A DNA stretch of 64,000 nucleotides from Candidatus Bacteroides merdavium (GTDB taxonomy: Bacteria > Bacteroidota > Bacteroidia > Bacteroidales > Bacteroidaceae), in the NCBI GenBank assembly GCA_019116805.1, contig DXAV01000068.1, forward strand, positions 21,709-85,708, read 5' to 3'. The notes beneath the pieces were generated by a model. It ran no database searches and had not been told where the DNA came from. It saw only the letters and a list, made by a program, of their open reading frames with translations. The position numbers and the translations under genes are program-made. Positions 48,690 through 58,314 of this stretch are shown here, piece after piece (position 1 is the stretch's first letter; each line of letters opens with the position of its first letter).

Positions 48690-48778
48690 GGCTTGTGCGA
48701 CTCTTTTGCTCAGCTAATACAAGTTGTTTGCCCAGCTTGTGCAGTTCGTTTGCCCTGCTTATTCGGGTGGCTTGTCCG
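48690..48778. repeat. Degenerate 22-bp-period tandem array (family C)
   Basis: GCT at 48691, 48713, 48735 and 48757; TTTGC at 48705, 48727 and 48749. Confidence 0.65.
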
Positions 48779-48804
48779 CGCGCATGAGGAAACGCAGACG
48801 GATG

Positions 48805-49602
48805 TCAGCGGTCTTTGCCTTCGAGCCAAGTGTCGATGAGACGGCGGGCGATGCTCAGCTTGCGCGGCAGTTCGGGCAGGTTATTACGGTGGTAGAAGGC
48901 ACCGGCCGTAAGCTCGTCCTCCTGCAGTTTGATGGTTCCACTTTCGTAATCGGCAAAGAAACCTACCATCAGGCCGCTGGGATAGGGCCAGGGCTGACTG
49001 TCGAAGTAGGTGATGTTTCGGATGGTGAGTCCCGTTTCTTCCATTACCTCACGGCGGACGCATTGCTCCAGCGTCTCGCCCGCCTCGAGGAAGCCCGCCA
49101 CAAGTCCGTAGAAGGTACCGCGGAAGTTTCGGGCGTGTACCATCAGTATCTCGTCGCCGCGGCGCACCAGCACGATGATGGCGGTGGAGATGGGCGGATA
49201 GAGCTCGTTGCCGCAGCGGGGGCACTTCTTCATGATGTCGGTCTGCTGCTCGGTGGGTGTGCCGCAGACGGGGCAGTAGCGGCTGTGCCGGTCCCAGTAG
49301 AGTATCTGGTAGGCCTTGCCGGCTGCTTTGTAGTCCGAAAGGGGCAGGTGGTCGAAGGAGGCACGCAGGCCTGTCATCATCCATTCGGCGGTTTCGGCCA
49401 CGGGATAGTCGATGGCAAATGCATAGACCTGTTCCCCGGTAGGCAGGGTGACGCGGTGCACCGTTTGCTCTGTGGCGGGGGCCACGGGCAGCTGTTCGCC
49501 TGTGGGCAGGGTGCAGGTGCCGTCGGGGTGTTTCTGTATCAGCAGCTGGTCGTTGTAGAAGATGCACCGGCGGGCGGTGCGGTCGTATTCCTGTTCGTTC
49601 AT
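48805..49602 (-). CDS. nudC: NAD(H) diphosphatase
   Basis: CPVCG...CPRCG zinc ribbon, Nudix box AGFLEAGETLEQCVRREVMEETG and SQPWPYP signature. Confidence 0.95.
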   Translation of the reverse strand: MNEQEYDRTARRCIFYNDQLLIQKHPDGTCTLPTGEQLPVAPATEQTVHRVTLPTGEQVYAFAIDYPVAETAEWMMTGLRASFDHLPLSDYKAAGKAYQILYWDRHSRYCPVCGTPTEQQTDIMKKCPRCGNELYPPISTAIIVLVRRGDEILMVHARNFRGTFYGLVAGFLEAGETLEQCVRREVMEETGLTIRNITYFDSQPWPYPSGLMVGFFADYESGTIKLQEDELTAGAFYHRNNLPELPRKLSIARRLIDTWLEGKDR

Positions 49603-49623
49603 CGTTTCAGCAGTTAGGTGGGG

Positions 49624-51507
49624 TCAGAAGTTTACGTGTACACCTCCCATGAAGGTGGCCTTCGGCATGGGGTAGCCCGCGTTGATCTCGTAGCGCTGTG
49701 CCAGCAGGTTCTCGCCTTTCACGAAGAGGCTTGCAAAGTTACACAGACGGTAGCCGATATTCAAGTTCCAGAGTACAAAAGTTTCCTGCTTTTCCTGTCC
49801 CTGCGTCACGGAGGTGTAGAGCCCGCGAACATACTGCACGCCGCTCGAGGCTGTCCACCGTCCCTGATGGTAGTTGGCGCCGACGTACAGTTTGTGTTCG
49901 GGGGCAGCCAGCACGGGATGTTCCATATGCAGCCAGCTGTAGTTGGCGTTGGCCTGCCAGCGGGCATTGAACCGGTAGGACACGGTGGCCTCCGTACCCC
50001 AGTTCTCAATGTGTCCCGTGTTCACGTTCTTGCGCTGGGCGGGGTCCACCTGTATGATGTTTTTCCCGTCGATGTAGTAGAGGTTGAGGCCGTAGGCCAG
50101 TGAGCCGTTGCAAAGACGTTGCGTGTAGGCCAGCTCGTAGCTGACGAGGCTCTCGGGCTGCAGGTCGGGATTCTTGGAGAACATGAACAGCTCGCGGATA
50201 GTAGGGTTGCGGAATCCCTTGCCTACCATGGCCTTCAACTCGGCCTGCCGGGGTAGGTGGAAGGCCAGTCCGCCTTGGGGTATCCACTCCGTACCCGTGT
50301 GCGAGTGATGGTCCACACGCAGTCCGGCGTCAATCGACAGCCATCGGCCGATGTCCTGCCGGAAATCCACGTATCCGGCCACTTCGTCCAGCTGTTTGTC
50401 CACCTGCGGCTGCTTTTCGCCCGTGGCCAGTACCTTGTACCACGACTCGCCGCCGAAGTGCTGGTAGTCTATACCGGCGGTGATGCGGTTACCTTCGAAG
50501 AGGGTGGCGCTCTGGTACCACGACAGGCCCATCATGCGGTCCTTGGAGTTGAAGTGCGACGTCTGCGGCTCTTCGCCCGGATGGTAGCCGTCGTTGATGC
50601 GGTGGCGTCCCCAGTTGTAGAAGAAGCTCAGTGCACCTGAGGTTCGTTCATAATGATTCTCGAGAGCAGCCGAGGCCATGCCGCGGGTGATGTGCGAGTC
50701 GTTGTCGATGTAGGGGGCTGCGGTGGTGCCGGGGTTGGAGACGTTGAAGTGAGTCACGTTGACGTCGCCCCACAGTTTCCACCGGTTACTGAAGTCATAG
50801 CCCAGTTTGGCATAGCCGCCATACTGCTCGAAGTCCATATCCGGTCGGTGTCCGTCGCTGCGGTTGTACGAACCGGTGACGATGCTGCTGAAGCGTCCGC
50901 GCTTCAAGCGGTTGGTTACCTCGGTTTGCAGGGTGTTGTAGGAACCGTATGCGGCCTGCACGTCGGTCTTCGAGCCTTCTTCCTCCATCTGCCGCGTGAC
51001 GATGTTGATGACGCCGCCCATGGCGTTCGAGCCGTAGAGTACCGAGGCTGGTCCGCGCAGCACTTCCACGCGTTCGGCCATCATTGTCTGGTAGGCATCG
51101 GCTATGGGATGTCCCATCAGCCCCATGTACTGCGGGTGTCCGTCGATGAGCACCAGCAGTCCGGCCGTGGGGCTGCCGCCGATGCCGCGCAGGCTCATGC
51201 CTCCGGCCGCTCCGGTGGACACGCCGTAGCCCATGATGCCGCGGCTGGTAGTGAAGAAGCCGGGCACCTGCTCGGTCAGTGTGGGCAGTACGGAGGGCTG
51301 GTAATTGCTTTCCAGCTGCTTCCGGCCTACAACGGAAATAGTCATGGGCAGGTGGCGGATGTCGGTCTTGTTGCGGGTTCCGGTCACTATCACCTCGTCG
51401 GTGGTCAGGTTACGGTCAATGCGTGTGGTGTCCTGCTGTCCCTGGACGACAGGTGATGTCAGTAGCAGGAGGGCCAGCAGGCTTCCTGTCAGGTTCCGTT
51501 CTTTCAT
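49624..51507 (-). CDS. TonB-dependent receptor (compact BtuB/CirA-like, not SusC type)
   Basis: Signal peptide from MKERNL, TonB box DEVIVTG, plug motif ERVEVLRGPASVLYGSNAMGGVINI and C-terminal Phe. Confidence 0.93.
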   Translation of the reverse strand: MKERNLTGSLLALLLLTSPVVQGQQDTTRIDRNLTTDEVIVTGTRNKTDIRHLPMTISVVGRKQLESNYQPSVLPTLTEQVPGFFTTSRGIMGYGVSTGAAGGMSLRGIGGSPTAGLLVLIDGHPQYMGLMGHPIADAYQTMMAERVEVLRGPASVLYGSNAMGGVINIVTRQMEEEGSKTDVQAAYGSYNTLQTEVTNRLKRGRFSSIVTGSYNRSDGHRPDMDFEQYGGYAKLGYDFSNRWKLWGDVNVTHFNVSNPGTTAAPYIDNDSHITRGMASAALENHYERTSGALSFFYNWGRHRINDGYHPGEEPQTSHFNSKDRMMGLSWYQSATLFEGNRITAGIDYQHFGGESWYKVLATGEKQPQVDKQLDEVAGYVDFRQDIGRWLSIDAGLRVDHHSHTGTEWIPQGGLAFHLPRQAELKAMVGKGFRNPTIRELFMFSKNPDLQPESLVSYELAYTQRLCNGSLAYGLNLYYIDGKNIIQVDPAQRKNVNTGHIENWGTEATVSYRFNARWQANANYSWLHMEHPVLAAPEHKLYVGANYHQGRWTASSGVQYVRGLYTSVTQGQEKQETFVLWNLNIGYRLCNFASLFVKGENLLAQRYEINAGYPMPKATFMGGVHVNF

Positions 51508-51923
51508 GCTTTTTTTCTTAAGTTGGCAATAAATTTTTCGATAACTGGGAAAATTTCTTTGGCCGAGTGGAGGTCGCGGCTGGCCTGTTCCAGCGGGCAC
51601 CAGCCCGTACGGTCGCGGTTGATGATGTGGTCCACCACTTCGTCGCAGGTCACCATAGCTCCTGCCTCTTGCAGCAGCTGGAGAGCCGGCCGGCTGATGG
51701 TGCGTGTGTAGACTTCGCACACGCCGCCCAGCACCATGAGCGAGGCTGCCGCCTTGCCGATGACCTTGTCGGCTACGGATGCGCCGTGCAGGAATTCGGG
51801 TTCCTGTACCAGCAGGTCATAAAGGTCGGCCACACCCCGCTGTGTGAACGTACGGATGCGGTCACCATTGGCTATCACGCAAGAGTATTCTCCTGCGTGA
51901 AGCATGTCTATGAGTTCTTTCAT
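51504..51923 (-). CDS. DUF1893 (TM1506-like) protein
   Basis: RGVADL, ADKVIGKAAA and IINRDRTGWCPLE motifs. Confidence 0.88.
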   Translation of the reverse strand: MKELIDMLHAGEYSCVIANGDRIRTFTQRGVADLYDLLVQEPEFLHGASVADKVIGKAAASLMVLGGVCEVYTRTISRPALQLLQEAGAMVTCDEVVDHIINRDRTGWCPLEQASRDLHSAKEIFPVIEKFIANLRKKA

Positions 51924-51939
51924 TCTTTGTCTTTTCGGA

Positions 51940-53328
51940 TTACAGCGTTTCTTGTTTCAACTGCTCCACATAGCGGTCGATGCGGTGCAGCTCTTCGGGA
52001 ATGTCAATGCTTTGCGGGCAGTGGGACACGCATTGGCCGCAACCGATACAGTGGCTGGCCTGGCGCAGGCGGGGCACACTGCGGTCGTACCCGATGAGGA
52101 AGGCCCGGCGTGCCTCGTGGTAGTTGGCGTGCTCCTGCGAAGTGGGCAGATTGCCCTCGTTCACACATTTATTATAATGTATCAGTACGGCGGGAATGTC
52201 GATGCCGTAGGGGCAGGGCATGCAGTACTTGCAGTCGTTGCAGGGGATGGTGGGGTATTGCTTCATCAGGTCGGCCGTCTGCTGCAGGAATTCCAGGTCG
52301 TCGTCCGTCAGGGGTACCAGCGGCGAATAGGTACGCAGGTTGTCCTGCAGATGCTCCATGTAGGTCATGCCGCTCAGCACCGTCAGTACGTCGGGGAACG
52401 TGCCTGCAAAGCGGAAAGCCCACGAGGCTACGCTCGCTTCGGGGCCGCGCTGTTTGAGGCGTGCCACGAGGTGTTCGGGCAGCTTGGACAGACGTCCGCC
52501 CAGCAGCGGTTCCATGATGATGGCCGGTATGTGGCGTTTCTCCAGTTCGGCGTAGAGATAGTCGGCGTTGACGTTGCGTCCCGAGGCATATTTCCAGTCT
52601 ACATAGTTCAGCTGGATCTGTACGAAGTCCCAGTGCACCTGATCGTGCATGGCCAGTACCTCGTCGAACACTTCCTTGGTACCGTGGAAAGAGAAGCCCA
52701 GATTACGGATACGGCCGGCCTCGCGCTCTTTCATTAGGAAGTCTATCATGCCATTCTCGATGTAACGGGCGCGGAAGGTCTCGATGCCACCGTTGCCGAT
52801 AGAGTGCAGCAGGTAGTAGTCAATGTAGTCCACTTGTAGTTCTGAGAACGAGCGGTTGTACATGGCGATGGAGTTCTCGCGCGTATAGTTGGAGAAGTTG
52901 GACAGCTTGGTAGCCACGAAGAACTTCTCGCGCGGATGGCGCTTCAAGGCAATGCCGGTCGATTTTTCCGACCAACCCTGTACGTAAACAGGTGACGTAT
53001 CGTAGTAGTTCACGCCGTGGGCCATAGCATAGTCTATCAGTTCGTTCACGGCATCTTGGTCGATGACGTTGCCGCCCTTTTCGGGAGCGGGCAAGGTGGG
53101 CCAGCGCATGCATCCGTAGCCCAGCAGCGATACTTTCTCTTTGGTTTTCGGGTTTTCGCGCAGGGTCATCTTGTCAGTGGGGATTTCTCCTTCTGCCTGC
53201 AGGGAGGAGGAAGCGGAGTCCTTCGGACTGCATCCTGCCAGTGCCGCGGTTGTGGTGGCCGTACTGATGCCTACAATCTTCAGGAACTCGCGGCGGGACA
53301 TATCGTTGGAATGATTCTGGTCGTTCAT
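51940..53328 (-). CDS. Tat-lipoprotein aldo/keto reductase with a C-terminal 2x[4Fe-4S] domain
   Basis: SRREFLK and LAGC lipobox; D/Y/K/H tetrad (DTSPVY, ATKL, LLH); CNDCKYCMPCP and CIGCGQCVSHCP. Confidence 0.92.
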   Translation of the reverse strand: MNDQNHSNDMSRREFLKIVGISTATTTAALAGCSPKDSASSSLQAEGEIPTDKMTLRENPKTKEKVSLLGYGCMRWPTLPAPEKGGNVIDQDAVNELIDYAMAHGVNYYDTSPVYVQGWSEKSTGIALKRHPREKFFVATKLSNFSNYTRENSIAMYNRSFSELQVDYIDYYLLHSIGNGGIETFRARYIENGMIDFLMKEREAGRIRNLGFSFHGTKEVFDEVLAMHDQVHWDFVQIQLNYVDWKYASGRNVNADYLYAELEKRHIPAIIMEPLLGGRLSKLPEHLVARLKQRGPEASVASWAFRFAGTFPDVLTVLSGMTYMEHLQDNLRTYSPLVPLTDDDLEFLQQTADLMKQYPTIPCNDCKYCMPCPYGIDIPAVLIHYNKCVNEGNLPTSQEHANYHEARRAFLIGYDRSVPRLRQASHCIGCGQCVSHCPQSIDIPEELHRIDRYVEQLKQETL

Positions 53329-53423
53329 TTGTATGTTGATATAGAAGTTAGAAAAGTTAAAGAAGTTATGGAAGTGATGCTGATAATGTATTGCTGATCA
53401 CTAACCGTTCACCATTCGATTGC

Positions 53424-54908
53424 TCAAATAATCTTGTGCCGTTCGTGTCCTTCCACATAAATGGCGCTGAAGGGCCGGGCTGGGCAAAGGTTCTCGCAGG
53501 CACCGCAACCGATGCAGCGTTCGGTGTCGATGGCCGGGAACTTGAGCGAGTCGGGATTGTTGGGGTCTGAGGGTACCATGGTGATAGCACCTGTGGGGCA
53601 ATGGCGCGCGCAGTTACCGCATTCCACTTTGTCTGTTTTTACCACGCAGTTGCGCTTGATCCATACGGCGTGCCCTATCTGGATGGACGACTTGTCGGCC
53701 ACGGTAATGGGCTTGATGGCTCCCGCGGGGCAGACTTCCGAACACTTGGTACACTCGGGGCGACAGTAGCCGCGTTCGTACGAAGAGAAAGGTTGCATCA
53801 GCGTCATCAGGCCGGTAGAAGGGCGCAACACCTCGTTGGGGCATACCGACACGCAGAGCTGGCAGGCCGTGCAGTGTTGGGCGAAGTGGCGGGCACCTTG
53901 GGCTCCCGGCGGCAGGATAGGCGTTTTTCGGTTGGGGATTTTCTTGTCTTCGATGGTAGCCAGTCCGCCGTCCACCTTCATCTCCTGAGCCTTCAGTACG
54001 GCAGCCGAAGCTGCCAGTGCCGTTGATGTCAGGAAGGCACGGCGCGAACTGCCTTCTTCATCCTTCTTTCCGTTTGCTTCGACTTTCGTCTTGGTCGGAT
54101 GGACGTAGCGCAGCGCCTGGTGTTTGCACTTGTCCAGGCAGTCCATACAGGCTACGCAGCGGCTGTAGTCTATGTTATGATTCTTGATGTCAATGCACGA
54201 AGCTTTGCAGTTGCGTGCACAGAGGTTACAGTTGGTGCACTTGTCGGTGTCGATGACCGGTTTCAGGTAGGCATATTTTGACAGGAAGCCCAGTACGGTA
54301 CCTACAGGGCAGATAGTGTTGCAATAAGTACGTCCACCCCGCCATGCCAATACGACGAGTACCACCAGTGTGACGGCAGCAATGACGAACGTAGGCAGAC
54401 TCTTCAGCCAGACGGTGGTATCGTAGAAGGCATAACTGTCGGCCCGTTCGGCCAAATAAGCCAACAGGTTGTTGCCCCATTGATAGATGGGAGCGAACAG
54501 ATTGCTCGTGATGCGTCCGTACGAACTGTAGGGCGCCAGCAGGGCGACAAACGAATGTATGCCTGCCACTAGTGCGATGACGAACACGCCCAGCACGCCG
54601 TAGCGCAACCACGACAGGGCGGGTGAATGACGGTAGCGGTTCTTCTTGCTTTTCTTTGAGAACCAGGCCACAATGTCTTGGAAGACGCCCAGCGGACAGA
54701 TGACCGAACAATAGACACGGCCCAGCAGCAGGGTGAGAATTACCAAAGCCAGTACCACTCCCACATTCAGCGTCAGCAGGGCAGGGAGGAATTGAATTTT
54801 GGCCATCCAGCCGAACCATGCGTGTAGCGTTCCCGTGAAGTCGAGGAACAGCAGGGTAATCAGCGTAAAGAATACGATGGCAGCAGTCAGTCTGATTTTA
54901 CGTAACAT
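53424..54908 (-). CDS. Membrane polyferredoxin (NapH/MauN-like fused to NapG/MauM-like)
   Basis: TM helices with two CxxxCP motifs, two ferredoxin motifs, internal SRRAFL and then four more Cys clusters. Confidence 0.9.
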   Translation of the reverse strand: MLRKIRLTAAIVFFTLITLLFLDFTGTLHAWFGWMAKIQFLPALLTLNVGVVLALVILTLLLGRVYCSVICPLGVFQDIVAWFSKKSKKNRYRHSPALSWLRYGVLGVFVIALVAGIHSFVALLAPYSSYGRITSNLFAPIYQWGNNLLAYLAERADSYAFYDTTVWLKSLPTFVIAAVTLVVLVVLAWRGGRTYCNTICPVGTVLGFLSKYAYLKPVIDTDKCTNCNLCARNCKASCIDIKNHNIDYSRCVACMDCLDKCKHQALRYVHPTKTKVEANGKKDEEGSSRRAFLTSTALAASAAVLKAQEMKVDGGLATIEDKKIPNRKTPILPPGAQGARHFAQHCTACQLCVSVCPNEVLRPSTGLMTLMQPFSSYERGYCRPECTKCSEVCPAGAIKPITVADKSSIQIGHAVWIKRNCVVKTDKVECGNCARHCPTGAITMVPSDPNNPDSLKFPAIDTERCIGCGACENLCPARPFSAIYVEGHERHKII

Positions 54909-55091
54909 AATAAAATGTTTGTTTTTAATAAGGTAAAATTGTCGTGTATCATTTTTGAGTGATACGTTACAAAAATAAAAAGAAAATTGGAAAACGGATA
55001 TACCAGAATTACGGTTATTCGTCTGTTTTTTCTTTTTTAAATATAATGATATGCCGAAAAAGCAGACATTTTGAGGAAATATGGGAGGAAG

Positions 55092-55209
55092 GTGTGACGC
55101 CGTGCTTCATGAGGGTCTGACGAAGTGCTTCGTGAGGTGCTCATGCAGTGCTTCGTCAGGGTGTCAGGAAGCACTGCATGAGAGTGTAAGAAAGTGCTTC
55201 GTCACGACG
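55092..55209. repeat. 23-bp-period tandem array (family A, copy 2, 5 units)
   Basis: Core at 55101, 55124, 55147, 55170 (inverted) and 55193. Contains the 15-bp inverted repeat CTCATGCAGTGCTTC/GAAGCACTGCATGAG. Confidence 0.9.
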
Positions 55210-55249
55210 GGTAACCGTGGCGGCACTTGGTTGGTCGTAAGGAAGCCTG

Positions 55250-55732
55250 TTATTGCATGGATGAGGCATCGAATGACAAAGGCAGCAGGTCGCCGACCCT
55301 CTGCATCTCGTAGATACCCTTTTCTCCATAGAGCAGGATGCGCATGGGCTGCTGGTATCTGGTTTCCGTTTCGAGCATCACTTGGCGGCAGGCACCGCAT
55401 GGCGGGATAGGGTCGTCCAAAAAAATGCCCTGTTCGTTACGGGCGGCAATAGCCAGCGTCTTTACAGCCTGGTCAGGGTAACGTGAGTTGGCATAGAAAA
55501 GAGTGGTACGTTCGGCACAGAGCCCCGACGGATAGGCGGCATTCTCCTGATTACTGCCACAGACAATGGTACCGTCCGCCAGGCGGGCGGCAGCTCCTAC
55601 GGAGAAGTGAGAGTAGGGGGAATAGCTGCGATGGGTGGCCTCGCGGGCAGCGTCTATCAGTTCGCGGTCGGCCTCGTTCAGCTCTTCGTATGGATAAATG
55701 TGGATGTTAATGTGGATATTCAGTTCTTTCAT
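55250..55732 (-). CDS. cdd: Cytidine deaminase
   Basis: YSPYSHFSVGAA, NQENA, CAE and PCGACRQ motifs. Confidence 0.95.
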   Translation of the reverse strand: MKELNIHINIHIYPYEELNEADRELIDAAREATHRSYSPYSHFSVGAAARLADGTIVCGSNQENAAYPSGLCAERTTLFYANSRYPDQAVKTLAIAARNEQGIFLDDPIPPCGACRQVMLETETRYQQPMRILLYGEKGIYEMQRVGDLLPLSFDASSMQ

Positions 55733-55830
55733 GGGTAGATGGTTTATGTAATTAATGTTACAAAGATAGGGAAGTGATTGGAATTTTCAATTCTTTTGCA
55801 GATTTTTGTGCTCAAATCAATGATAACAAC

Positions 55831-56751
55831 ATGAAATATACCTCCCGATTGTTGGCCCTTGTGGCTCTTCTCGTTTTGCTTCTGCCTGCTCAGGCACAAC
55901 GCAGAAATTCCCGTTACAACGAATACATCAAGCAGTATGCTCCTATTGCAGTGGAACAGATGAAGCTGCATAAGATACCGGCCAGCATCACGCTGGCACA
56001 GGGATTGCTCGAGAGTGGGGCGGGGCAGAGTGTGCTGGCCCGCAAGAGCAACAATCACTTTGGTATCAAGTGCCATAGCAACTGGCGTGGCCGTCGGGTC
56101 TATCACGATGACGATGCACGTGGTGAATGCTTCCGTGCATACCGTAATGTACGTGACTCCTATGAAGACCATTCCAAGTTCCTGACCAGTGGTGCGCGCT
56201 ATGCATTTCTGTTCAAACTGAAGATTACCGACTACAAGGGTTGGGCCAAAGGACTGAAGAAGGCCGGATATGCCACCGACCCGTCGTATGCCAACCGTCT
56301 GATTACCATCATTGAGGATTATGAGCTCTATAAGTATGACAATGAGGGAATGGGGCGTCGTGAGGCCCGCAAGTGGGAGAAGGAAATCAAGAAGAAACCT
56401 TGGCTGCTCAATCCTCATCAGGTGTATATTGCCAATGGGCTGGCCTATGTGGTGGCCCGTGATGGTGACAGCTTCGAATTGCTGGGCGGTGAGTTTGACA
56501 TCAGTTGGAAAAAACTGGTCAGCTACAACGACCTGCATCGTGAATATACCCTCGAGGCTGGTGACATCATCTATCTGAAGAAGAAGAACAAGAAGGCACA
56601 GAAGCCTTACACTGTCCACATTGTGCGCGATGGCGACTCCATGCACAGCATTTCCCAAAAGTATGGCATCCGTCTGAAGAACCTCTATAAGATGAACCGT
56701 AAGGACGGCGAATACGTACCTGAAGTGGGCGATCGCTTACGGCTGAGATAA
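55831..56751 (+). CDS. GH73 glucosaminidase with LysM domains
   Basis: ITLAQGLLESG, NNHFGIK and GYATDP motifs plus two LysM repeats. Start placed at MKYTSR. Confidence 0.93.
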   Translation: MKYTSRLLALVALLVLLLPAQAQRRNSRYNEYIKQYAPIAVEQMKLHKIPASITLAQGLLESGAGQSVLARKSNNHFGIKCHSNWRGRRVYHDDDARGECFRAYRNVRDSYEDHSKFLTSGARYAFLFKLKITDYKGWAKGLKKAGYATDPSYANRLITIIEDYELYKYDNEGMGRREARKWEKEIKKKPWLLNPHQVYIANGLAYVVARDGDSFELLGGEFDISWKKLVSYNDLHREYTLEAGDIIYLKKKNKKAQKPYTVHIVRDGDSMHSISQKYGIRLKNLYKMNRKDGEYVPEVGDRLRLR

Positions 56752-56842
56752 AAAACTGTTCTTCATTTGGGTGGGCATGCTTTTGCGTGATGTGTTCCAG
56801 CATATAGCTTGCTTTATACAATAACCTAAAAATATAGAGAAT

Positions 56843-57268
56843 ATGAAAAGCGATCCGAAAGAATGTCTGTATTGTCAGAACAACGAAGCGTTGCACAATC
56901 TGATGATTGAAATTGCCCAATTGAGTGTTTCACGTGTTTTCCTTTTCAAGGAGCAGACCTACCGCGGCCGGTGTCTGGTGGCCTATAAGGACCATGTGAA
57001 CGATTTGAATGAATTGACCGATGACGAACGTAATGCTTTCATGGCAGACGTAGTCCGTGCGACTCGTGCCATGCAGAAGGTATTCAATCCCGGAAAAATC
57101 AATTATGGAGCCTATTCCGACAAATTGTCGCATCTGCATTTCCACCTGGCGCCGAAGTATGTGGACGGCCCTGATTACGGCGGTACGTTTCAGATGAATC
57201 CCGGAAAAGTCTATCTTTCCGATGCGGAATACCAGCAGATGATCGACGCGCTGAAAGCAGCGCTTTGA
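56843..57268 (+). CDS. HIT family hydrolase
   Basis: CLYC and HLHFH motifs. Confidence 0.9.
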   Translation: MKSDPKECLYCQNNEALHNLMIEIAQLSVSRVFLFKEQTYRGRCLVAYKDHVNDLNELTDDERNAFMADVVRATRAMQKVFNPGKINYGAYSDKLSHLHFHLAPKYVDGPDYGGTFQMNPGKVYLSDAEYQQMIDALKAAL

Positions 57269-57329
57269 GAATTGAAAATGGAGAATGGATAATTGAGAAC
57301 TTTTAAGTATTCATTCTCCATTCTCAATT
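57266..57329. repeat. Heptamer-repeat hairpin between convergent genes
   Basis: AATTGAA AATGGAG AATGGAT AATTGAG with the inverted arm TTCATTCTCCATTCTCAATT. Confidence 0.75.
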
Positions 57330-58314
57330 AAATCTTTCCCAATATCTTATCCATAACCCAGTTTGTCAGCGTAGCGCTTTCGCCGTCGCAGGTGCAGACG
57401 GATTTGCCCAACAGATGATCCACAACGGCTTGGATGAGCGGTTGCTGCACGTAGAGCGGATTGGCTACGGGAATCTCTTCGCGTCCTTTTTCGGTATGCA
57501 GGGCGATGGGGTCATAAGTGAAGACCGAAAAGCAGATCATGCCCTTGTCGCCGATAATCTCGATACGGTCTTCGCGGGCGGAGTCATGAGCCACGAAACA
57601 CCATGAGCCGCTTCCTACCAACCCATTGTCGAACTGGAAACTGGCACTGATGGTGTCTTCTGCCTGATAAAGCCCGCCGCGGTTGCTCTTGTAACCGCTG
57701 GCTTCGAGGATACAGCCAAAGATTTCCTGTAACAGGTCAATCTGATGAGGGGCTAGGTCATAGAAATAGCCGCCTCCGGCTATGTCGGGCTGCACACGCC
57801 ACGGCAGATTCTCGCGGTTGTAGTCCAGATTGCGCGGCGGTTGTGCGAAGCGTATCTGGATGTTGATGACATTGCCGATGGCGCCTTCCTCGACGAGCGA
57901 CTTCACCTTCTGGAAGTAGGGCAGGTAGCGGCGGTAGTAGGCTACGAAGCAAGGCACGCCCGTTTCTTGCGAGATGCGGTTGATGCGGCAACATTCTTCG
58001 TAGGTCACGGCCATTGGCTTCTCAATATAAACCGGCTTGCCTGCCTTCATGGCCATGATGGCATACGTGGCATGCGAAGAGGGAGGCGTAGCGATATAGA
58101 CGGCGTTCACGTCTGGGTCGTCTATCAGCTCCTGAGCGTCGTCATACCACCGGGGGATGTTACGCTCCTGAGCATATGCCTTGGCTTTGGCTGCATTGCG
58201 GCTCATGACGGCTACGACCTCGGAGCCTTCTATCTTTTGGAAAGCGGGGCCGCTCTTGTATTTGGTCACTTCTCCGCAACCAATGAAACCCCATCTGATC
58301 TTTTCTCTCTTCAT
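57328..58314 (-). CDS. Gfo/Idh/MocA family oxidoreductase
   Basis: GFIGCG, VYIATPP..H, EKP and GGG..D..H motifs. Confidence 0.92.
   Translation of the reverse strand: MKREKIRWGFIGCGEVTKYKSGPAFQKIEGSEVVAVMSRNAAKAKAYAQERNIPRWYDDAQELIDDPDVNAVYIATPPSSHATYAIMAMKAGKPVYIEKPMAVTYEECCRINRISQETGVPCFVAYYRRYLPYFQKVKSLVEEGAIGNVINIQIRFAQPPRNLDYNRENLPWRVQPDIAGGGYFYDLAPHQIDLLQEIFGCILEASGYKSNRGGLYQAEDTISASFQFDNGLVGSGSWCFVAHDSAREDRIEIIGDKGMICFSVFTYDPIALHTEKGREEIPVANPLYVQQPLIQAVVDHLLGKSVCTCDGESATLTNWVMDKILGKI

Follow-up and report, generated by a model that had tools for sequence, protein, structure and literature searches.

A conserved Bacteroidales gene cluster that links a polyferredoxin and a Tat-type aldo/keto reductase to DUF1893 and putative micronutrient uptake

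The closest published account of the gene neighborhood considered here is the context analysis of Iyer, Zhang, Rogozin & Aravind (2011; NAR 39:9473, PMC3239186), who predicted operons combining TM1506/DUF1893, an aldo/keto reductase (AKR) and a "5TM" protein, and recorded fusions to TonB receptors. In TM1506 itself, Asp56 was found to be ADP-ribosylated, and an unidentified ligand lies beside a conserved Lys (PMC3239186). We analyzed a 64,000-nt stretch of DNA from Candidatus Bacteroides merdavium (contig DXAV01000068.1; hereafter the window), in which five co-oriented minus-strand open reading frames (ORFs) within positions 48805–54908 encode a polyferredoxin, an AKR with a twin-arginine translocation (Tat) signal and an iron-sulfur (Fe-S) domain (AKR-FeS), a DUF1893 protein, a TonB-dependent receptor and the NAD(H) diphosphatase NudC. 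Compared across the order, the cluster consists of two sub-modules: A, comprising the polyferredoxin and the Tat-AKR, and B, comprising DUF1893 and an S component-like permease of the energy-coupling factor type (ECF-S-like), to which the TonB receptor and a DUF362/Fe-S protein may be added. We give an even chance to the reading that the two sub-modules act jointly, with quinol-linked redox chemistry on a small molecule taking place in the periplasm, DUF1893 binding that molecule and the transporters moving it.

The locus resembles the neighborhood of Iyer et al. (PMC3239186) in joining, within Bacteroidetes, DUF1893, an Fe-S-type AKR, a small multi-pass membrane protein and a TonB receptor; the same guess at the ligand, NAD or ADP-ribose, was made there, and their "5TM" protein is the ECF-S-like permease of the present work. 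Their treatment differs in being limited to two sentences of context analysis, in calling the Fe-S domain a zinc ribbon of rubredoxin-like type, and in lacking the polyferredoxin, the export of the AKR as a Tat lipoprotein, DUF362, the AKR::DUF1893 fusions and the asymmetry between A and B. A preliminary description of the window, made from the sequence alone, had stated that no functional description of such a cluster was known. This holds for function, as no functional study of DUF1893, TM1506, COG1453, 9E9A or DUF362 was found in the literature searched, although the neighborhood itself was published in 2011. What is added here is the A/B split with its asymmetry, the AKR::DUF1893 fusions that bear on export, the demotion of nudC, and evidence for and against a nickel-pincer cofactor.

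About 120 loci were compared, namely 20 around AKR homologs in relatives and, around DUF1893, 20 from a sample of 301 genomes of the order and 80 from genomes of named species. The nearest named record is a Mediterranea massiliensis metagenome-assembled genome, with 89–95% protein identity over the cluster. The order polyferredoxin, AKR, DUF1893, optional TonB receptor, optional DUF362 and ECF-S-like permease recurs in all three sets and in many Bacteroidales families, which bears out the suspicion that parts of the cluster are widespread. Around DUF1893 in the 80-locus set, we found the Tat-type AKR in 67 loci, the polyferredoxin in 62 and the ECF-S-like gene in 51, followed by the TonB receptor (20), DUF362-like genes (8), a metallo-beta-lactamase (MBL)-fold hydrolase (4) and NudC (3). 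Of the linkages put forward in the preliminary description, the one between DUF1893 and the redox pair therefore recurs elsewhere, the one to the receptor does so in a minority of loci, and the one to nudC in a single clade. Named carriers include Bacteroides xylanisolvens, B. ovatus, B. finegoldii, Phocaeicola, Prevotella, Alistipes, Parabacteroides, Odoribacter and Butyricimonas, and both control genomes, B. thetaiotaomicron and Thermotoga maritima, possess DUF1893. The module is present in major genera of the human gut, widely conserved and functionally uncharacterized. Outside Bacteroidales, DUF1893 is rare in the phylum (2/301 genomes). Bacteroidales-type modules at 59–67% identity also occur under the record names Clostridium sp. 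CAG:217 (L117) and Oscillospiraceae bacterium (L122); as the genome of L117 is placed in the phylum of the window, its record name or binning is probably wrong.

The two sub-modules are not distributed alike. In the 301-genome sample, AKR-FeS is present in 53 genomes and DUF1893 in 27; all but one of the DUF1893-containing genomes (26/27) also carry AKR-FeS, and 27 of the 53 AKR-FeS carriers lack DUF1893. In five complete genomes with AKR-FeS and without DUF1893 that were checked, the ECF-S-like gene was not found either. About half of the carriers of sub-module A therefore lack B, and B is almost never found in a genome lacking AKR-FeS. This asymmetry fits a role of B in handling a molecule that needs A, and it does not fit B supplying something essential to A.

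The polyferredoxin of sub-module A (494 aa; 53424–54908, minus strand; Fer4/Fer4_5 with partial NapH and NapG matches) can be compared with the NapGH quinol dehydrogenase of the periplasmic nitrate reductase system, with MauMN and the NapH-like CcoG/RdxA proteins as further comparators. NapH is a membrane protein of four helices that bears two CX3CP motifs and, on the cytoplasmic side, two [4Fe-4S] motifs, and NapG is a Tat-type periplasmic ferredoxin with four clusters; like the present cluster, the system has a Tat-exported periplasmic redox enzyme as its partner. The NapH features are all found in the polyferredoxin, which has four predicted transmembrane helices (residues 10–28, 44–62, 105–123 and 170–188), two CX3CP motifs (residues 67 and 196), a group of two [4Fe-4S] motifs (224 and 251) and a further group of four (346, 389, 433 and 465), with an internal twin-arginine-like segment, SRRAFL, near residue 288. 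Given these helices, CX3CP motifs, 2 + 4 cluster motifs and the internal SRRAFL, it looks like a fusion of a membrane half of the NapH kind with a half of the NapG kind, and the partial profile matches extend over residues 174–274 for NapH and 282–477 for NapG. It differs from NapGH in being a single fused chain with an internal twin-arginine segment, in scoring far under the NCBIfam equivalog cut-offs (76–77 versus 213–234 bits for NapH, 73.6 versus 269 bits for NapG), and in having as its partner an AKR, not a molybdo- or heme enzyme; no nap genes are present in the locus. The polyferredoxin adjoins the Tat-AKR in 61 of the 67 AKR-bearing loci of the 80-locus set. The Fe-S wire to quinone that had been proposed for this locus is thereby upheld as regards the pairing of a NapGH-like protein with the AKR, and the pair could be linked to the quinone pool. 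In one relative (G021, L008:12239-14338), a gene for a 699-aa KamA-family radical-SAM aminomutase-like protein lies directly upstream of the polyferredoxin.

The AKR (462 aa; 51940–53328, minus strand) combines an Aldo_ket_red domain (PF00248, 117.9 bits versus a cut-off of 24) with a C-terminal 2x[4Fe-4S] domain (Fer4_9), and it has thousands of close relatives. In an alignment of 19 homologs, the catalytic tetrad D110/Y115/K141/H175, which aligns with the tetrad of solved AKRs, is invariant, as are the eight Fe-S cysteines. The N-terminus carries the twin-arginine motif SRREFLK followed by a LAGC lipobox, the RR motif and Cys33 being conserved in the same homologs, and TatC is encoded elsewhere in the genome (contig C49). 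The catalytic tetrad, lipoprotein signal and two Fe-S motifs described earlier are hence confirmed, and on these motifs the enzyme is almost certainly Tat-exported, as had been supposed, and predicted to be lipid-anchored. The cofactor is another matter. At beta5, the canonical GVSNF is replaced by GFS(F/Y)HG, such that the Asn that binds the nicotinamide carboxamide has become Phe/Tyr, followed by an invariant His. With this Asn replaced, and with an invariant His of the sort typical of nickel-pincer AKRs, the bound NAD(P) of the preliminary description is doubtful. The genome encodes a second polyferredoxin and Tat-AKR-FeS pair (contig C19:495-3412; loci L002 and L019) with 73 and 63% identity; that pair lacks DUF1893, and the genes after it encode a CarboxypepD_reg-domain protein and a HisKA sensor.

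The altered site is shared with NphT (Semersky et al., Nat Chem 2026, PMC13524815; PDB 9YEB), an AKR dependent on nickel-pincer mononucleotide (NPMN), which demonstrates that AKRs can use this cofactor. A Ni-binding His is present in Lar-linked AKRs, accompanied or not by a covalent Lys, which is optional in 40% (PMC13524815). The window AKR has in common with NphT the AKR fold, the D-Y-K-H tetrad, a beta5 His at the Ni-binding position and the loss of the carboxamide-binding Asn. In the phmmer alignment to 9YEB, GFSFHG aligns with GITGHG of NphT, and His215, invariant in the 19 homologs, lies opposite the Ni-binding His144. It is possible, if unlikely, that the AKR resembles NphT in using NPMN in place of NAD(P)H, with the Ni center bridging hydride and single-electron chemistry toward the Fe-S wire, and that the TonB receptor, ECF-S-like permease, DUF1893 and DUF362 salvage a cofactor or precursor that the bacterium cannot make. 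Several genomic observations point the same way. LarC was not found in the genome of the window (G000, 85.6% complete) or in the B. thetaiotaomicron control, and it is present in none of the 27 DUF1893-containing genomes versus 47 of the 274 without DUF1893. In four LarC-containing genomes, short AKR-FeS proteins are found and DUF1893 is not. DUF362 and the cofactor-binding N-domain of LarA are members of one Pfam clan, and DUF362 gives a faint Lar_N match.

Other observations weigh against an NPMN enzyme. Neither LarC nor DUF1893 is present in 23 of the 53 AKR-FeS genomes, five of which were checked and also yielded no ECF-S gene; the enzyme is thus independent of either supply route. The mutual exclusion of LarC and DUF1893 follows clades and is thus confounded by phylogeny, two families hold both, and T. 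maritima has LarC and TM1506 together. In the order, true LarA is confined to LarC-containing genomes. No counterpart of NphT K200 was aligned, its likely beta7 position, by analogy with canonical AKRs, being occupied by the invariant M272-E273. Furthermore, among PDB matches to the family profile NphT ranks no higher than 11th, after NAD(P)-dependent AKRs, and L-galactose dehydrogenases come first in the fold search; the adduct on TM1506 is ADP-ribose (PMC3239186), not the 450-Da NPMN adduct (PMC13524815). The window enzyme also differs from NphT in its extra 2x[4Fe-4S] domain, Tat signal and lipid anchor, in that its genome shows no LarC and no LarE match above cut-off (LarB was not searched for), and in a similarity to NphT no higher than that to NAD(P)-dependent AKRs. 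On balance, we rate as rather unlikely the full proposal that DUF1893 and the ECF-S-like permease, with or without the TonB receptor and DUF362, form the first salvage route for a nickel-pincer nucleotide cofactor or its pyridine precursor, and that AKR-FeS is a nickel-pincer enzyme whose Ni center supplies a quinol-linked Fe-S wire with single electrons derived from hydride chemistry. If true, the AKR would represent a periplasmic oxidoreductase of a new type, spread widely among Bacteroidales of the human gut.

The fold comparison bears also on the direction of electron flow. For an AF2 model of the AKR with a pLDDT of 76.7, most AKR structure matches gave TM-scores of 0.70–0.78 (normalized by target length), and the nearest solved folds in Foldseek were L-galactose dehydrogenases, returned first, and AKR11C1. 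With L-galactose dehydrogenases and other sugar-oxidizing AKRs as its nearest solved folds and sequences, the enzyme might be a periplasmic aldose or alcohol dehydrogenase that feeds menaquinone through the polyferredoxin as a respiratory donor branch, the uptake genes importing the oxidized product. Low-potential Fe-S chains would be suited to feeding menaquinone from the oxidation of aldoses, aldoses are also acted on by NphT (PMC13524815), and the MBL-fold gene in 4 of the 80 loci is lactonase-like. We nevertheless hold this reversal to be quite improbable: fold similarity within the AKR superfamily is no predictor of substrate, no sugar-catabolic genes are linked to the cluster, and permeases of the ECF-S type, like small SusD-less TonB receptors, typically serve micronutrients and not carbon sources.

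DUF1893 (139 aa; 51504–51923, minus strand) has no signal peptide and matches PF08973 with 173.3 bits versus a cut-off of 27, and PDB 1VK9 with an E-value of 3.7e-12. D52-K53 and C109-P110-x-E112 are invariant, and in the alignment to TM1506 (1VK9, with a 12-residue tag offset) D52 falls on Asp56. By searching for longer DUF1893 proteins and reading frames within the loci, we found that DUF1893 is a hub, tied to every partner through in-frame fusions in different lineages. It forms a single ORF with AKR-FeS in 8 loci, where it is joined to the C-terminus of the AKR by a linker of ~15 residues and where RRxFLK and the lipobox are retained in all cases. It precedes the signal peptide of a TonB receptor in 4 loci and in dozens of protein clusters, including Butyricimonas, and it is fused to either end of the ECF-S-like protein (DUF1893::ECF-S and ECF-S::DUF1893). 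Further in-frame fusions join it to the N-terminal part of the polyferredoxin and, in a Sec-lipoprotein among the longer proteins, to DUF362 (DUF362::DUF1893); tandem DUF1893 lipoproteins exist as well. DUF1893-NudC fusions are found on several contigs (P0209, P0210) of the Mediterranea-like clade. The simplest inference for the signal-less DUF1893 of the window is that it would leave the cytoplasm piggy-back on the folded Tat-AKR. A recently deposited structure, PDB 9E9A, bears no title beyond "DUF1893 domain-containing protein" and may reveal the native ligand.

These fusions also contradict the notion that the genes are mere neighbors without a common function, which can appeal solely to the variable presence of the TonB receptor, DUF362 and NudC. 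Gene order is conserved across many families and the in-frame fusions between members arose repeatedly and independently, and we consider the absence of any functional tie extremely improbable.

The TonB-dependent receptor (49624–51507, minus strand) was at first represented by a 698-aa ORF with a GTG start, which is an over-extension overlapping DUF1893; the ATG at 51507 gives a 627-aa protein with a normal signal peptide, whose start overlaps the DUF1893 stop (ATGA). By its profile matches it is a generic small TonB receptor, with a plug and a 22-strand-type barrel and without a SusD partner. Its nearest solved relative is BtuB (E-value 1e-14), yet it scores 139 bits versus the BtuB equivalog cut-off of 599.7 (TIGR01779), and there is no cobalamin riboswitch in the window (Rfam). 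Identification as a B12, heme or siderophore receptor was dropped, all equivalog scores being far under their cut-offs.

Two regular members of the cluster, the ECF-S-like permease and the DUF362/Fe-S protein, were missed in the preliminary description. The permease is a membrane protein of ~170 aa with weak PF12822 matches (29.1 and 25.7 bits, under the cut-off of 30.7), and its language-model neighbors are all named ECF S component. In the genome of the window, both genes lie together on another contig (C5:2026-3683; L024:353-2010), the permease directly after DUF362, and both are found within the cluster in other species. The DUF362 protein of this contig is predicted to be cytoplasmic, with a 2x[4Fe-4S] domain inserted into it and a faint match to Lar_N. 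The small SusD-less receptor and the S component-like permease of ~170 aa are shared with known micronutrient lines of Bacteroides (BtuB-type receptor plus inner-membrane permease, and solitary ECF S components such as BioY, ThiW and QueT). The present cluster differs in being coupled to a periplasmic redox enzyme and DUF1893, in the lack of a riboswitch in the window, and in the lack of linked EcfAA'T genes at the locus, although no search aimed at EcfAA'T was made.

From the observed domain content, motifs, synteny, fusions and phyletic pattern, we infer an electron path and its direction, the export of DUF1893, a class of ligand and an order of steps. The polyferredoxin, as a fusion of NapH and NapG in the inner membrane, would exchange electrons, most likely with menaquinol, and its periplasmic four-cluster half would hand them to the two [4Fe-4S] clusters of the AKR. 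The Tat-exported, lipid-anchored AKR would then reduce (or oxidize) a small molecule in the periplasm. The TonB receptor would be the outer-membrane entry for that molecule, DUF1893 a ligand-binding hand-over protein physically associated with the AKR, and the ECF-S-like permease and DUF362/Fe-S protein, encoded here on contig C5, would complete the line of uptake and handling. The structure of TM1506 and the altered nicotinamide site of the AKR suggest that the ligand is most likely a pyridine-nucleotide-like micronutrient or cofactor. If this joint scheme is true, the Fe-S-wired AKR would represent a new class of periplasmic enzyme in anaerobic electron transport, DUF1893 would gain a role 18 years after its structure was solved, and a micronutrient cross-fed in the gut ecosystem may come to light. 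For experiments, the redox and uptake pairs are separable, DUF1893 offers a physical hub, and nudC can be left out of constructs.

Four points count against this scheme. First, the TonB receptor is found in just 25% of DUF1893 loci. Second, about half of the carriers of the redox pair lack the uptake genes, so that A and B may serve different substrates. Third, the active site of an AKR normally needs a hydride cofactor, and there is no flavin to couple one to the one-electron Fe-S centers. Fourth, the topology of DUF1893 is contradictory between lineages: fusion to the N-terminus of a signal-bearing TonB receptor, or fusion to the ECF-S-like protein, implies a cytoplasmic location, whereas a place in the periplasm is implied by the Sec-lipoprotein forms and by fusion to the Tat-AKR. 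As the fusions place DUF1893 in the cytoplasm in some lineages and in the periplasm in others, the role of a ligand carrier fits it best, and DUF1893, for which cofactor loading had been suggested earlier, is not simply a cytoplasmic loading factor.

That suggestion was part of a model in which the exported AKR acts on an imported substrate, its tightly bound NAD(P) being recycled through the Fe-S wire, and DUF1893 and NudC load, turn over or salvage the cofactor. Tat is able to export cofactor-loaded proteins, for example the glucose-fructose oxidoreductase of Zymomonas, and the catalytic tetrad of the AKR is intact. The model draws in addition on the ADP-ribose or NAD-like ligand bound by TM1506 (PMC3239186), on the position of nudC 21 nt downstream of the receptor with no terminator between, and on the existence of DUF1893-NudC fusion proteins. 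The earlier interpretation is supported in part. This model we judge improbable as a whole: the nicotinamide-carboxamide-binding Asn is replaced, a flavin that could couple NAD(P)H to the Fe-S centers is absent, and DUF1893 co-varies with the ECF-S permease, not with NudC, which is linked in 3 of the 80 loci, all in one clade and within a cdd...nudC interval that is conserved and varies in content.

NudC (265 aa; 48805–49602, minus strand) is itself securely assigned, with 233.3 bits versus a cut-off of 158 for NF001299 and matches above cut-off to PF09296, PF09297 and PF00293 (NUDIX-like N-domain, zinc ribbon and NUDIX). It adjoins the cluster only in the Mediterranea-like clade (L050, L051 and L063 in the 80-locus set, as well as G011 and G016). 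In this clade a cytidine deaminase gene lies upstream, as in the window, where it encodes 160 aa at 55250–55732 on the minus strand (TIGR01354, 118.8 bits versus a cut-off of 113.65) and forms the upstream flank of the cdd...nudC interval; L063 retains only cdd, DUF1893 and nudC. In three genomes of the same genus, 5.3–5.8 kb separate cdd from nudC on one strand, the genes in between are quite different, and the DUF1893 module sits elsewhere or is absent. The NudC of the window is the sole NudC-type protein among the seven NUDIX genes of its genome, which together with the conserved interval of variable content indicates a housekeeping neighbor. Judging from this synteny, nudC is most likely a flanking gene and not a core member, contrary to the preliminary description, with the reservation raised by the DUF1893-NudC fusions, which may reflect a secondary functional tie in the Mediterranea-like clade. 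It may be co-transcribed with the cluster here.

The arrangement of the five co-oriented genes, with intergenic gaps of 95, 16, -4 and 21 nt behind a single -7 element, was confirmed by ORF calls, profile searches and reading of the sequence, and all five assignments are backed by both Pfam and NCBIfam profiles. The putative promoter is a Bacteroides-type -7 box, TATTTTTG, at 54977–54970 on the minus strand (54970..54977), which fits the Bacteroides -7 consensus TAnnTTTG and lies 62 nt 5' of the polyferredoxin ATG. Between it and the polyferredoxin start, a perfect inverted repeat, GTATCA-N8-TGATAC (54946–54965), could serve as an operator. It is retained solely in the two nearest relatives (L005 and L050), and for this reason it is uninformative on a regulon and was dropped as a regulon marker. 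Riboswitch control of the cluster was likewise dropped, the Rfam scan having returned no family above threshold anywhere in the 64-kb window. Terminator-like matches inside the cluster are at chance level, with 7 found versus 7.6 expected.

The G+C content is 0.58–0.61 over the cluster (49000–53500) versus 0.46–0.51 upstream (54500–57500), a contrast that could be a compositional sign of the cluster being cargo inserted into the cdd...nudC interval. Within the G+C-rich stretch, two spurious long ORFs, one at 49624–51720 (the 71-codon extension of the receptor over DUF1893) and one at 48724–49617 (297 aa, antisense over nudC), form a potential trap for gene callers.

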